DNA of 64,000 nucleotides from an uncultured Gammaproteobacteria bacterium (GCA_963699955.1 CAVOVV010000005.1:122001-186000), one strand, 5' to 3'; shown: positions 11,273-50,932, numbered from the stretch's first letter. The notes: a model not told the origin generated them from the letters alone. Program-made: numbers and translations.

Positions 11273-11398
11273 GCCCACCGCTTTCCACATGACTACTCGT
11301 AGGGAACAAGCAGAAGATGTTGAATCGATGCACTGCGTCCAAACACCTAAACTCGAGTCCGGCTTGATTCGAACGGCAAATAGTTAGACGCTCATGCC

Positions 11399-12172: not shown

Positions 12173-12381
12173 GCTGCACCCGCAGGCTCGCTTCGAAAAG
12201 GCCAAAAACAAATTGAATCCGCGCCGATCATTGCCATCGGATTGTAGGAGTCTGTCGGCGTGTTGCCCAACTCGCCGCTGTGCTGACGGCCTCCAGGCCT
12301 GCGACCTGCAAGCGCGCGCCGGTGAAGGGCGTGAACGCCGATGTGTGCTATCGTTTCGGTAAGAACAGTCACTGGTAAAGC

Positions 12382-17652: not shown

Positions 17653-17697
17653 AGGGGTGCGAGGCCTGCCTAAAGCGTTGTTCCGGCGAGAAGTTCA

Positions 17698-17706
17698 TGG
17701 TATAAA
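17698..17706 (+). promoter_or_regulatory. Extended -10 promoter (TGgTATAAA) for rpsB-tsf, followed by a ~165-nt leader
   Basis: TGGTATAAA at 17698-17706 closely resembles the extended -10 of the E. coli rpsB promoter as I recall it. The distance to the rpsB ATG (17878) is similar to the long E. coli leader. Confidence 0.5.
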
Positions 17707-17877
17707 GCGCGGCCTTTTTTGGCAACGCAATCCACACGCGTATCAGTAACTTGCAGCTGGGTGTCCCCACGCCCTTAGGCTCTCGCCAACCCCGGATCGG
17801 GCGGTGAGGGCCAGAAAGGAGTGGGAATCGCTGGCAAGGATACGCGGAGGCCCTAACCCAACAACGAGGTATCGATC

Positions 17878-45629: not shown

Positions 45630-46292
45630 ATGACTGACCCACGCTTCACGGGTATTGGCATGACCTCGCTCCGCACCCGCGACCGGTTGGTGCAGCGGCT
45701 GCGTGACCAGGGCATCACCAATCTGACCGTGCTCGATCGGATTCGGAATCTCCCGCGCCATATTTTCGTCGACGAGGCGATCGCCAGCCGCGCCTATGAG
45801 GACACGGCTCTGCCCATCGGATTCGGCCAGACGATTTCGCAGCCGTTCATCGTGGCACGCATGACCGAGGCGCTGCTGGACGGTCCGCCTCTCAAGCGCT
45901 TGCTCGAAGTGGGCACGGGCTGCGGCTATCAGACCGCGGTGCTGGCGCCGCTGGTGGAGCGCATCTACAGCATCGAACGCATTGCGGGGCTGCAGCACCG
46001 GGCGCGACAGCGACTCAAGGAACTCGACGTGCGCAACGTGCGCTTCAAAGTGGGCGACGGCTCCATCGGCTGGCGGACCCAAGCGCCCTTTGACGGGATC
46101 ATCGTCGCGGCGGCGCCGCTAGTCGTGCCGGAAGAATTGATCGAGCAGCTCGCACCCAACGGTCGCCTGATCGTGCCCGCAGGTCCCGAGGGCAAACAGC
46201 AATTGCTGCGCATCGTGCGCCGGGAGCAGGGTCTGGAACGGCAGGTTCTGGGGTCGGTTTCCTTCGTTCCATTGGTCGGCGGGGTCGGTTAA
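45630..46292 (+). CDS. pcm: Protein-L-isoaspartate O-methyltransferase
   Basis: [30 protein letters not shown] motifs, and the surE-pcm pairing. Confidence 0.9.
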
Positions 46293-46358
46293 TGGCATCG
46301 AAACAAGATGAGTAATGGTCTATAACCTTATGATTTAGATATTATAACCTAATGGCAC

Positions 46359-46388
46359 TTGTCAAGCTTAGAAGTGCGCGACTAGTAT
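46359..46388 (+). promoter_or_regulatory. Candidate sigma70-like promoter (TTGTCA-18 nt-TAGTAT) inside the AT-rich intergenic island
   Basis: -35-like hexamer at 46359-46364 and -10-like hexamer at 46383-46388. It is preceded by two 12-nt direct repeats TATAACCT(T/A)ATG at 46321-46332 and 46343-46354. Confidence 0.35.
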
Positions 46389-46394
46389 CGGGCC

Positions 46395-46620
46395 CTGTCG
46401 GTCCGCACCGACAGCCTGCAAATCAAGGGTGCTCAGGCGCACAGGGAGAAGACACAGGGCAACAGGGGAAGAGCTGATTAGTCCACAGAAGAAGAAAAAC
46501 AGTCCGAAAAACAAAAACAAGGCAGTGACAATTATTCGATTCTGTCAGCTTCGGATAGTTGGTTGGTTGAGCGATCTTTCCGCCCTGTGTCTTCTTCCGG
46601 TGCGCTCTGGGCGCACCGGG
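46395..46620 (+). ncRNA. Candidate structured small RNA (family unknown; ends are approximate and the strand is inferred from the promoter-like element only)
   Basis: No credible ORF in the region. 8-bp hairpin at 46395-46414, a 24-bp long-range helix (46437-46460 / 46582-46605), an A-rich unpaired tract at 46485-46520, and a terminal 9-bp hairpin at 46597-46619. Confidence 0.3.
46437..46605. repeat. 24-nt inverted repeat pair flanking a 121-nt AT-rich core
   Basis: gcgcacagggagaagacacagggc (46437-46460) against gccctgtgtcttcttccggtgcgc (46582-46605). Hand alignment gives 22 Watson-Crick pairs, 1 G-T and 1 mismatch. Confidence 0.8.
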
Positions 46621-46640
46621 CCCCGCACCCCGCGGTCCTC

Positions 46641-47009
46641 TTAGGGGAACAGCCCGGCGACGACTTCACGCCGTTCCTGGGCCAGCACGTTGTAGGTACG
46701 GCAGGCCGCGCCGAGATCCATGAGCTCCAAGGCGATGCCGCGCGCTTCGAGCGCGCGCCGCAGCGCACCGCCGGCCGCCGGCACGACGCCATCGGCGCCG
46801 ATGAGCAGGACCTGCGGATGCAGCGCGAGGAGCGGCTCAAGCGCCGCCAGGTCCAGCGCCTGCGCGGATTGCACCGGCCAGTCCGTGATCAGGCGCGCGC
46901 TGCTGACGATGCAGGGTGCGCGGATCGTCTGCCCGCCAATGTTGATTTCGCCACGCGCGTACGAGCGCACGGTCAGTATTTGCGGATCGGAGTCGAGTAC
47001 CAGTCGCAC
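46641..47009 (-). CDS. Mth938-like (DUF498 / NDUFAF3-like) domain protein
   Basis: The C-terminal ~120 aa of the 258-aa track ORF look like this family (RLVLDSDPQILTVRSYARGEINIGG..LLIGADG..MDLGAACRTYNVLAQERREVV). GTG at 47009 is the only plausible in-frame start near the domain boundary. Confidence 0.65.
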   Translation of the reverse strand: MRLVLDSDPQILTVRSYARGEINIGGQTIRAPCIVSSARLITDWPVQSAQALDLAALEPLLALHPQVLLIGADGVVPAAGGALRRALEARGIALELMDLGAACRTYNVLAQERREVVAGLFP

Positions 47010-47027
47010 GGCCGTTACGATACCACC

Positions 47028-48074
47028 GTGCCTCGACTCATCCTTGTCCTCCGCGACCTGTACCCCGCGCGCCTGAGCGAGGCGGCGCGCGCCACGCTCC
47101 CTCGCCTGCCGGAACTCGAACGTTGGCTCGCGCAAGGGGAGACCGATCTGGCCGCCGGCGACTGGCGCCAGTGGCTGCAACGGGAAGCCCGCGGCCCCGC
47201 CGCTCGTGGGGTTCCGCCCGCATCGATCGCTGGCGCGGCGGTGTCGGGCGTGCCCGCGGGAGTGCCGGTGTGGTTTGCGAGCCCTATCCACTTGGTCGCC
47301 GGACTCGACACGGTGCGCGTGCATCCGGCCGGACTGCTGCAGCTGAGCAGCGAGGATCAGTGCCTGCTGGAGCGGGATTTCATGACCGTTTTTGCCCACT
47401 CGGGCTGGTCCCTGCACGCGACCGGCCGGCGTGAGCTGCTGCTGGCGGGAGGTCCAGCGCTCCAGCCGGACAGCGTGCGCAGCCAGGATCCGGCGCTATG
47501 GCTGGGAGCGGATCCGCGCGAAGGGCTGCCCGCCGGCCCGGCCGCGGGTACGCTGCGCCGCCTCGGCGCGGAAATGGAAATGTGGCTCCATGAGCACCCG
47601 ATCAACGAGGCGCGCCGCGCGCGTGGCACGCCGGCGGCCAACGCCGTGTGGATCTGGGGCGGGGGCCGCCCCGCGCTCTCGGTATCCGCGAACGCTGTGT
47701 CGAAGCCCAGCGGCGCTGCGGTAGCATGGGCCGACGACCTGTTCGTGGATGGACTGGCGCGGCTTGAGGGCTTCGCAGTCGGGCCGCTGCCGCCGCGCTG
47801 GCCGCCATCGACGAACGCGAATCGCGTGCCGGAGGCCGACGTGCTGGCAGTCTGCGGGTTGGGCGCCGATGCCAGTGAGACGGCTCTCGAGGGGCTGGAG
47901 CGCGACTGGGTCGCACCGGCGCTCGAGCACTGGCGAGCGGTGCAATGGCACAGCGCAACGCTCCTGGTCGGCGCGCGCGCCGTGACGCTCGCGCGCGGGC
48001 CGTGGCGCTCCCTGTGGCGCCGGTTCAGACGACCTCAACCCTGGTGGGAGACCTTGTTGCAGTGCTCACGGTAG
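47028..48074 (+). CDS. Conserved hypothetical protein, possibly an RpfE-type regulatory protein (recJ-linked)
   Basis: The GTG start gives VPRLILVLRDLYPARLSEAARATLPRLPELERWLA... The upstream part of the 503-aa track ORF is antisense to the Mth938-like gene. Its position immediately upstream of recJ-prfB-lysS recalls the Xanthomonas rpfE neighbourhood. The assignment is from memory. Confidence 0.5.
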   Translation: MPRLILVLRDLYPARLSEAARATLPRLPELERWLAQGETDLAAGDWRQWLQREARGPAARGVPPASIAGAAVSGVPAGVPVWFASPIHLVAGLDTVRVHPAGLLQLSSEDQCLLERDFMTVFAHSGWSLHATGRRELLLAGGPALQPDSVRSQDPALWLGADPREGLPAGPAAGTLRRLGAEMEMWLHEHPINEARRARGTPAANAVWIWGGGRPALSVSANAVSKPSGAAVAWADDLFVDGLARLEGFAVGPLPPRWPPSTNANRVPEADVLAVCGLGADASETALEGLERDWVAPALEHWRAVQWHSATLLVGARAVTLARGPWRSLWRRFRRPQPWWETLLQCSR

Positions 48075-49836: not shown

Positions 49837-50932
49837 ATGGAAATCACACAACTCAGACGGGCATTGACAGATCTCGAGGAGCGCGCGCTGTCCTTGAGGG
49901 GGTTCCTTTGAGTACGACCGCAAGCGCGAGCGCCTGGAAGAAGTCAGCCGGGAGCTGGAAGAGCAGGCCGTGTGGAGCCAACCTGAGCGCGCCCAGGAAC
50001 TGGGCCGGGAACGCGCCCGCCTAGGCGCAGAGCTCGGCGAAATGGATCGCGTCTCGGGCTCGGTGCATGCCGCACTCGAGCTGCTGGAACTCGCCGAAGC
50101 CGAGAACGATGAGTCTACGGCGAACGACCTCGAGCGCGAGCGGCCGAAATTCGAGGCCAGCGTGCGCGCACTCGAGTTCAAGCGCATGTTTCGCGGCGAG
50201 ATGGACTCGCACAGCGCGTTCCTGGACATTCAGGCGGGCGCGGGGGGAACCGAGGCGCAGGACTGGGCGCAGATGCTGTTGCGCATGTACCTCAAGTGGG
50301 CCGTCACCCGCGGCTATTCCGCCGAAGTGATCGACTCCAACCCTGGAGAAGTCGCCGGGCTGAAATCAGCCACCGTCGAGGTCGAGGGCGAGTACGCCTA
50401 CGGATGGCTGCGCACCGAGACCGGCGTGCACCGCCTGGTGCGCAAATCGCCGTTTGACTCCGGTAACCGCCGCCACACCTCGTTCGCGTCGGTATTTGTG
50501 TCGCCCGAGATCGACGATGACATTGCCATCGACATCAACCCGGCGGACCTGCGCACCGATACCTATCGCTCCAGCGGCGCGGGCGGCCAGCACGTCAACA
50601 AGACCGAATCCGCGGTGCGCATCACGCACCTGCCGAGCGGCATCATCGTGGCCTGCCAGAATGAGCGCAGCCAGCACAAGAACCGCGCCACCGCCATGAA
50701 GATGCTCAAGGCCAAGCTCTACGAGCTGGAGGTCAACAAGCGCAATGCCGCGGCCAAGGTGCTCGAAGACTCCAAATCGGACGTCAGTTGGGGCAATCAG
50801 ATCCGCTCCTACGTGCTTGATCAGTCACGCATTAAGGATCTGCGCACCGGGGTCGAGGTGGGCAACACCGGCTCGGTGCTCGATGGGGCACTCGATCAGT
50901 TCATGGAAGCCAGTCTCAAGGCCGGACTGTGA
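49837..50932 (+). CDS. prfB: Peptide chain release factor 2, requiring a programmed +1 frameshift (49837..49908 joined to 49910..50932)
   Basis: ORF0 is [24 protein letters not shown] followed by TGA. The +1 frame continues [34 protein letters not shown]... with the SPF and GGQ motifs ([19 protein letters not shown]). Confidence 0.9.
49897..49912 (+). promoter_or_regulatory. prfB +1 frameshift site: internal SD-like AGGGGG followed by CTT TGA G
   Basis: AGGGGG at 49897-49902, CTT at 49906-49908 and in-frame TGA at 49909-49911. The layout matches the E. coli AGG GGG TAT CTT TGA C site. Confidence 0.85.

Follow-up and report, generated by a model that had tools for sequence, protein, structure and literature searches.

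What occupies the gap between two convergent genes when that gap is long, comparatively AT-rich and carries a promoter-like signal of its own? The question is raised by a 64,000-nucleotide stretch of DNA from an uncultured Gammaproteobacteria bacterium (CAVOVV010000005.1:122001-186000; hereafter, the window), in which the pcm open reading frame (ORF) stops at 46292 and a convergent minus-strand ORF stops at 46641, leaving 348 nt between them. Pfam assigns PCMT to the first of these genes, DUF498 (the Mth938-like family) to the convergent one, and SurE to the gene upstream of pcm. The G+C content of the gap is 51% against 66% for the window, with 17 of 60 positions G or C at 46301-46360 and 22 of 60 at 46481-46540. 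The original prediction, made from this sequence alone, gave the limits of the gap and both of these counts exactly, and proposed that the gap holds a separately transcribed small RNA. Our analysis bears that proposal out: conserved promoter hexamers, covarying helices, G-U pairs that fit the plus strand and the lack of a conserved ORF make it very probable that the gap carries a stand-alone, independently transcribed structured RNA gene. As to what this RNA does, the best explanation overall, which we put forward tentatively, is an Hfq-binding structured small RNA, most likely a decoy resembling CrcZ of Pseudomonas.

The family to which the RNA belongs is known from about 100 genome and soil-metagenome loci of Steroidobacteraceae, with one copy in each. 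Relatives were collected through Pcm, taking one genome per species, and by a metagenome search with a degenerate pattern drawn from two conserved segments of the RNA. Exactly one plus-strand copy lies directly 3' of pcm in each of loci L001-L031, as judged by blastn together with R1, a covariance model built from 13 close sequences. The degenerate pattern matches at least 120 metagenome contigs, whose sample types are known from contig names only, and a full or end-truncated model match is present in 71 of the 80 loci that were fetched. In the window itself R1 and a broader model, R2, score 247 and 163 bits, respectively, at the site given in Table 1, their sole plus-strand match in the 64 kb. 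R2 additionally recovers a divergent subfamily (L065, L054, L070 and L071 at E-values of 1e-11 to 1e-15, and L032 at 1e-5) and has no match in Woeseiaceae loci. The Pcm relatives place the window in Steroidobacteraceae/Steroidobacterales, a group represented here by metagenome-assembled genomes only. Among close relatives the RNA core is 95-100% identical, compared with 79-89% for pcm DNA and 67-88% for DUF498 DNA.

Conservation in about 100 loci disposes of one objection that had been raised in advance, namely that the element might be private to this sequence; two others, a known RNA family and a mobile-element remnant, fare no better. The Rfam comparison that had been suggested for the gap was run with Rfam 15 on the whole window and gave no matching family at the gathering score; at that threshold Rfam recognises no RNA gene in the 64 kb, tRNA included. 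Permissive searches, with E allowed to reach 1 for 1.4 kb and 10 for the RNA by itself or for a homolog from the major clade, returned no bacterial family. Their matches were chance or sub-threshold eukaryotic ones: mir-3661, on the minus strand in the DUF498 coding region, a human long non-coding RNA model and plant microRNA hairpins.

A mobile-element remnant, in the manner of a miniature inverted-repeat transposable element (MITE), would explain the 24-nt inverted repeat in the element, and a small protein-coding gene would explain a 71-codon ORF that runs across the RNA in the window; we regard either possibility as negligible. The MITE reading was rejected because the element is present once in the 64 kb and once per locus, in constant synteny. 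Moreover, the degenerate pattern is absent from viral contigs, blastn against plasmid and phage records gives no match, and the inverted repeat itself contains G-U pairs and compensatory changes. As for a protein, no ORF is conserved: frame, start and length vary among members, and close relatives lack variation of the synonymous type.

Folding of the plus strand of 46390-46640 yields -114 kcal/mol (z = -5.7 against shuffled sequences), in keeping with the earlier description of this segment as hairpin-rich. Its helices, P1 to P4, are listed in Table 1. P1, P2 and P4 were scored in A4, a MAFFT alignment of 89 non-identical members that was not fitted to any structure. Together they pair in 94.9% of alignment cells, against 40-49% when the partners are slid by 1-3 columns, and changes on both sides are found at 22 of 39 pairs (219 cells); none of 500 shuffles reaches any of these measures. 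The closing stem P2, of about 28 bp, has compensatory changes in 16 of its 23 scored pairs and is paired in 93.9% of cells. Its base is highly variable yet paired, a single pair occurring as UA (27), CG (21), GC (20) and UG (8), and its GAAGAC/GUCUUC core is kept in sequence, beyond pairing alone. P4 is paired in 98.1% of cells, with exchanges among G-U, A-U and C-G, and one pair of P1 has changed from GC to UA in 3 relatives. The register of P3 differs between clades; its 5' strand is rich in purines and its 3' strand in pyrimidines (GGAGGG/CCCUCC at the corresponding position of the major clade). This helix shows no covariation in the close clade because it is invariant there. G-U pairs, frequent in P2 and P4, would be A-C mismatches on the minus strand, and the covariance-model scores are far lower on that strand, both of which identify the plus strand as the RNA.

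The P4 loop UCUGUCAGC is near-invariant in the relatives found via Pcm, a set free of pattern bias. A pseudoknot between P1 and this loop (CUGUC with GACAG) was rejected, there being no covariation: L026, L029 and L031 alter P1 and not the loop, and L016 alters the loop and not P1. One locus, L020:4808-5070, carries a tandem duplication of about 47 nt, so that the P4 hairpin and part of the second A-R-N tract described below are present twice.

The RNA would be transcribed from its own promoter. TTGTCA-18-TAGTAT, a sigma70-like site placed at 46359-46388 by the original prediction, is indeed present, and it is the sole promoter-like site in 46100-46900, where 0.1 would be expected by chance. 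In 13 close relatives the segments CTTGTCAA and CTAGTATC are fixed, and the spacer and all upstream DNA are variable, which is the pattern to be expected of a functional sigma-70-type promoter. The geometry TTGNNN-N18-TANNNT recurs in 73 of 97 loci, the spacer being always 18 bp and the site ending 4-8 nt (mode 7) before P1; the hexamers are TTGTCA/TAGTAT for the window's clade, TTGCRN/TAACAT for the major one. Judged from the promoter position, transcription probably starts at about 46394-46396, directly at P1. A sigma-54 promoter was considered and rejected: TGGCAC-N5-AAGC at 46352-46367 has the right GG/GC spacing in the window, but relatives do not share the pattern (GG-N10-GC, 46353-46367). 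Loci of the major clade (e.g. L153, L117 and L099) have, within the 60 nt before the RNA, a conserved TTCTGCGAC inside the 18-bp spacer and an upstream A-tract (AAAAATC..TT....CAAA) resembling an UP element; in the window's clade nothing obvious corresponds to either.

The DNA upstream of the promoter (46293-46358) is AT-rich in all close relatives, yet it cannot be aligned, and similarity is undetectable even where the RNA of the relative is 96-100% identical. Two direct repeats, TATAACCTTATG (46321-46332) and TATAACCTAATG (46343-46354), spaced by 22 nt, had been reported here and read as the site of a regulator. They lie where they were said to lie, and repetition of TATAACCT in this one sequence is unlikely to be due to chance, since shuffling the 66-nt AT-rich segment produces repeats as good in 8 of 3000 trials, and shuffling the entire gap does so in 16 of 1000. 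Their reading as a conserved operator was rejected, as they are specific to the window and absent as repeats in relatives. A different motif, YAANNNNTTGAW, is semi-conserved: 9 of the 15 sequences from the close clade have it exactly, at a constant distance of 36 nt upstream of the -35 hexamer, as against none of 57 from the major clade. Only the first TATAACCT copy overlaps it. The motif resembles WATCAANNNNTTR, which we take to be the IHF consensus, and may, as a lead only, mark an IHF site.

Evidence on function comes from the part of the RNA between P3 and P4. A purine tract, AGAAGAAGAAAAACAG at 46487-46502, had been suggested as an (ARN)n-like platform for Hfq or another protein (A, adenine; R, purine; N, any base), and comparison strengthens the case for Hfq, because there are two such tracts and they are conserved throughout. 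In this interval each of the 89 members contains two separate runs of three or more A-R-N triplets, with a median longest run of 5, and adenine makes up 47% of the interval against 18% of the remaining RNA. Column by column, the three-base periodicity is strict: the first position is A in 94-100% of members, the second is almost only a purine and the third is any base. Since the tracts lie outside the pattern used for the metagenome search, this periodicity is not an artefact of selection. In the divergent subfamily (L065, L070, L054, L071 and L032) the closing stem is retained, with tracts reaching 7-9 triplets; in these five loci the UCUGUCAGC loop sequence is absent and the apical region differs.

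Table 1. Features of the small RNA gene and its upstream region (coordinates in the window; all on the plus strand)
Feature	Position	Strand	Remarks
AT-rich promoter-upstream region	46293..46358	+	holds two window-specific TATAACCT repeats
Semi-conserved YAANNNNTTGAW motif position	46323..46335	+	window reads TAACCTTATGATT, one mismatch
-35 hexamer TTGTCA	46359..46364	+	CTTGTCAA invariant in 13 close relatives
-10 hexamer TAGTAT	46383..46388	+	CTAGTATC invariant in 13 close relatives; predicted start ~46394-46396
Whole predicted small RNA	46394..46620	+	~215-230 nt; covariance-model match 46388-46612
P1, 5'-terminal hairpin CUGUCGG/CCGACAG	46395..46414	+	inverted repeat; 92.8% of cells paired in 89 sequences
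P2 closing stem, 5' strand	46434..46460	+	purine-rich, GAAGACACAGGG core; inverted repeat
P3 continuation helix, 5' strand GGGGAAGAG...	46465..46484	+	pairs with 46561-46581; predicted fold
A-R-N tract 1: AAG AAG AAA AAC AGU	46489..46503	+	mean unpaired probability 0.63 (predicted)
A-R-N tract 2: AAA AAC AAA AAC AAG	46507..46521	+	mean unpaired probability 0.73 (predicted)
P4 hairpin	46529..46561	+	11-bp stem, 46529-46539 with 46551-46561; loop UUCUGUCAGCU, 46540-46550
G/U-rich 3' segment GUUGGUUGGUUG	46558..46569	+	shared by 3' strands of P4 and P3; conserved as UUGGUUGGUUG
P2 closing stem, 3' strand	46582..46609	+	pyrimidine-rich, CCCUGUGUCUUC core
3' hairpin CCGGUGCGC-ucugg-GCGCACCGG	46597..46619	+	inverted and direct repeat; competes with P2 base

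We know of no RNA interface other than the distal face of Hfq that displays a strict periodicity of adenine, purine and any base. The distal face binds tripartite A-R-N motifs, six per hexamer, through adenine-specific, purine-selective and non-discriminating positions repeated sixfold (PMC4063720). CrcZ of Pseudomonas, an Hfq decoy 407 nt long, has six (A-R-N)n repeats in which n is 4 or more, and engages approximately one hexamer per tract (PMC4063720). Because the two tracts of the present RNA fit the distal-face signature, as those of CrcZ do, we propose that it binds Hfq through them, and on the strength of the sequence pattern consider such binding rather probable.

A mechanism can be sketched on this basis. 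The sigma-70-type promoter would start the transcript at about 46395, at P1. P2 and P3 would clamp an interior that presents two (A-R-N)4-5 tracts, P4 with its UCUGUCAGC loop, and the G/U-rich strand. The tracts would dock on the distal face of Hfq, taking up to one hexamer each, and an abundant, stable RNA of this kind would draw Hfq away from A-R-N-bearing mRNAs, as CrcZ does in Pseudomonas; the P4 loop may, in addition, contact a partner. Protection of the RNA ends would fall to the 5' hairpin and the closing stem, which, as no U-tract terminator follows, would also have to define the 3' end in most members.

That titration of Hfq is the main activity of the RNA is a more hesitant proposal than binding itself, and we place it somewhat below an even chance. 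In its favour are the several full-length tracts, the absence of a U tail in most members, the end-protecting helices and the retention of the tracts in members that lack UCUGUCAGC. A number of observations weigh against it. There are two A-R-N tracts here against six in CrcZ, the window RNA has no U tail for the proximal face of Hfq, and both promoter type and genomic context are unlike those of crcZ. A pure decoy explains neither why the P4 loop is nearly invariant nor why the P2 core is conserved in sequence; both would better fit a base-pairing seed or a second protein partner. A tblastn search with E. coli Hfq found no match in the window and about 1.1 Mb of loci, a negative that is uninformative because these loci all lie around pcm, where hfq is not expected.

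The conserved loop brings in a first rival, in which the RNA acts in trans by base pairing, as Hfq class II small RNAs do, is anchored by its tracts and uses either the P4 loop UCUGUCAGC or the G/U-rich strand as seed. The seed is usually the most conserved part of a small RNA, and among the relatives found via Pcm the P4 loop is the most conserved single-stranded element. A-R-N motifs are reported to be a hallmark of class II RNAs such as ChiX, MgrR and CyaR, in which they bind the Hfq distal face and are combined with a seed (PMC6239178). Canonical terminators, hairpins followed by a U run, stand right after P2 in L029, L160, L093, L070, L016 and L032. Nevertheless, the U tail is absent in the window and in most members, and the divergent subfamily has A-R-N tracts without the UCUGUCAGC loop; on balance we find this reading possible but on the unlikely side.

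At the 3' end of the window RNA, no terminator-like site is found in 46100-46900, and the 3' hairpin at 46597-46619 is followed by GCCCCGC, with no U run. Instead of pairing with the 5' strand of P2, the final 9 nt of its 3' strand can pair with GCGCACCGG, a copy of that 5' strand lying downstream; when the resulting terminator-like hairpin forms, the base of P2 cannot. Analogous hairpins are found in L016, L018, L031 and L026, with a U run after those of L016 and L031. From these predicted folds, the alternative hairpin may be a conformational switch or a mechanism of 3'-end formation.

The conservation of the P2 core in sequence, beyond pairing, also points towards a second rival, in which the structured RNA would bind or sequester another protein in place of Hfq, for example ribosomal protein S1, an RNase or double-stranded-RNA binder of the GAAGAC/GUCUUC duplex, or RNase III, which could excise the mature RNA from the long stem. 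The near-perfect duplex of 24-28 bp is of the size of an RNase III substrate. What this rival does not account for is the strict periodicity of adenine, purine and any base, S1 having no three-base periodicity of its own, and we judge it distinctly unlikely. RNase III or another double-stranded-RNA partner for the GAAGAC/GUCUUC core may nonetheless act on the Hfq-binding RNA that we favour.

The position of the gene suggests a further alternative, a cis-acting element that would serve as bidirectional terminator or insulator for pcm and DUF498, or as antisense regulator of the 3' end of DUF498. In nearly all of the approximately 100 loci the order is pcm (plus), RNA (plus), DUF498 (minus), the RNA ending 5-50 nt from the DUF498 stop, and the long hairpin could form on the minus strand too. 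Against such a role stand the conserved promoter, some 120 nt of conserved interior that would be useless to a terminator, and the loci that break the arrangement. In L029 and L031 the RNA is kept though DUF498 lies 3.3 kb away; conversely, the outgroup Lentisalinibacter salinarum and L034 have the pcm-side gene and DUF498 only 9-60 nt apart without the element. A purely cis-acting element is therefore very improbable. In L086 and L117 it is pcm and the RNA that are parted, by a 4.3-kb insertion.

These exceptional loci also indicate how the gene arose. In the outgroup (L064:3977-6389) pcm is followed by a 193-amino-acid ORF (DedA-like by eye), nlpD and a convergent DUF498 about 60 nt away, with neither RNA nor rpoS; in L034 pcm and DUF498 are separated by 9 nt. 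Since both lack the RNA and have nearly adjoining genes, the RNA gene is a lineage-specific addition. An NlpD-like gene (LysM plus Peptidase_M23) lies between pcm and the RNA in L065 (4659-5321), L070, L054, L071, L030, L144 and L032, and no nlpD homolog is present in the window. The RNA gene was thus placed first after nlpD, which was later lost from this position in the window's clade. The original prediction had remarked that the element takes the place held by nlpD-rpoS in many gammaproteobacteria. The nlpD part of this remark is supported by the distant relatives with pcm, an NlpD-like gene and the RNA in succession; no link to rpoS was found. As the RNA-less outgroup has nlpD convergent with DUF498 and no rpoS, the RNA did not replace rpoS, and its origin as a relic of an rpoS leader was rejected on the same grounds.

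The gap had also been called, roughly correctly, the only long non-coding stretch of the window. By a crude gene call from ORFs and third-position GC, it is the longest low-GC gap, but three shorter ones of 126-225 nt are present (11273-11398, 12173-12381 and 17653-17877), none of which contains an Rfam family; the last lies upstream of an ORF that by eye resembles ribosomal protein S2 (rpsB). On the other side of the locus, divergent from the DUF498 gene, an ORF of about 355 codons (47040-48074, plus strand) has no Pfam match at E up to 0.001. Further on, 49894-49912 is a classic programmed +1 frameshift site of prfB (release factor 2, RF2), reading AGGGGG and then TTC CTT TGA G, where a 34-codon ORF stops at 49911 and the main RF2 frame runs on downstream.

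The RNA described here is a strong candidate: it represents a cleanly delimited family backed by covariation, which evolves more slowly than its protein-coding neighbours, extends to at least 120 metagenome contigs and has no entry in Rfam 15, to which its alignment and covariance model could be offered as a new family. Steroidobacteraceae are common in soils, and our literature search on regulatory RNA in Steroidobacteraceae and on Steroidobacter small RNAs found no paper. Position-by-position conservation of A, R and N is an unusually explicit signature of a protein-RNA interface, and so makes Hfq binding directly testable. If the RNA is indeed an Hfq decoy, control of Hfq availability of the CrcZ type would not be peculiar to pseudomonads. 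A bolder extension, to which we assign a rather low probability, is that the family represents a second global Hfq decoy, evolved independently of CrcZ and at work in abundant, mostly uncultured Steroidobacteraceae of soil. In this reading two tracts are mounted on a rigid double-stranded clamp, the invariant loop recruits another partner, and the RNA links the availability of Hfq to a signal that acts on its promoter.

How, then, does this RNA compare with known systems? The CsrA sponges RsmZ and CsrB are likewise small RNAs that sequester a protein, as is proposed here, and Pseudomonas rsmZ lies in a similar neighbourhood, just after pcm-nlpD-rpoS. The present RNA differs in having neither a palindromic GacA box nor an Rfam match, and a CsrA sponge was rejected because there are only three GGA motifs (CAGGGAG, AGGGGAA and UCGGAU), the first two of which lie in the P2 and P3 stems.

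The likeness to 6S RNA (SsrS) is one of overall size and layout, with a P2-to-P2 span of about 175 nt and a closing stem that leads through a large internal loop to an apical hairpin, and with a strong-looking promoter that in the major clade has an upstream A-tract. An RNA that mimics an open promoter and so sequesters the RNA polymerase holoenzyme would share these features. In 6S RNA the closing stem opens into a bubble of some 15 + 15 nt, beyond which lies a long stem-loop. Here a closing stem and a large loop are present; the loop is strongly asymmetric, its 5' strand consisting of about 40 nt of A-R-N repeats and the other strand of about 10-15 nt, the apical arm is 11 bp only, and a 5' hairpin is added. 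The Rfam 6S models find no match even when E is allowed to reach 10 for the RNA by itself or for the major-clade homolog, and we give the 6S-like reading almost no credence.

Class II Hfq-dependent small RNAs are typically of about 80-110 nt and end in a Rho-independent terminator with a U tail. The window RNA shares their A-R-N motif and differs from them in having two full-length tracts and no U tail. The closest parallel is with CrcZ, and also CrcY and CrcX, which are likewise stand-alone non-coding RNAs with single-stranded (A-R-N)n tracts, n being at least 4, and whose decoy mode is the one proposed here. As no Rfam family matches the RNA, no CrcZ model held by Rfam does so. At about 220 nt with two tracts, against 407 nt with six, the present RNA is the smaller, and a closing stem of at least about 28 bp clamps its tracts. 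The crcZ gene is located after cbrB and has a sigma-54/CbrB promoter; here the upstream gene is pcm and the promoter is sigma-70-like (TTGNNN-N18-TANNNT). To our knowledge, Crc itself is not to be expected outside pseudomonads. Overall, the comparison suggests a new family of a known kind, that of small RNAs associated with Hfq, set apart from 6S RNA, CrcZ, class II RNAs, CsrA sponges and MITEs, and one that, by analogy, may share a common working principle with CrcZ and the class II RNAs.

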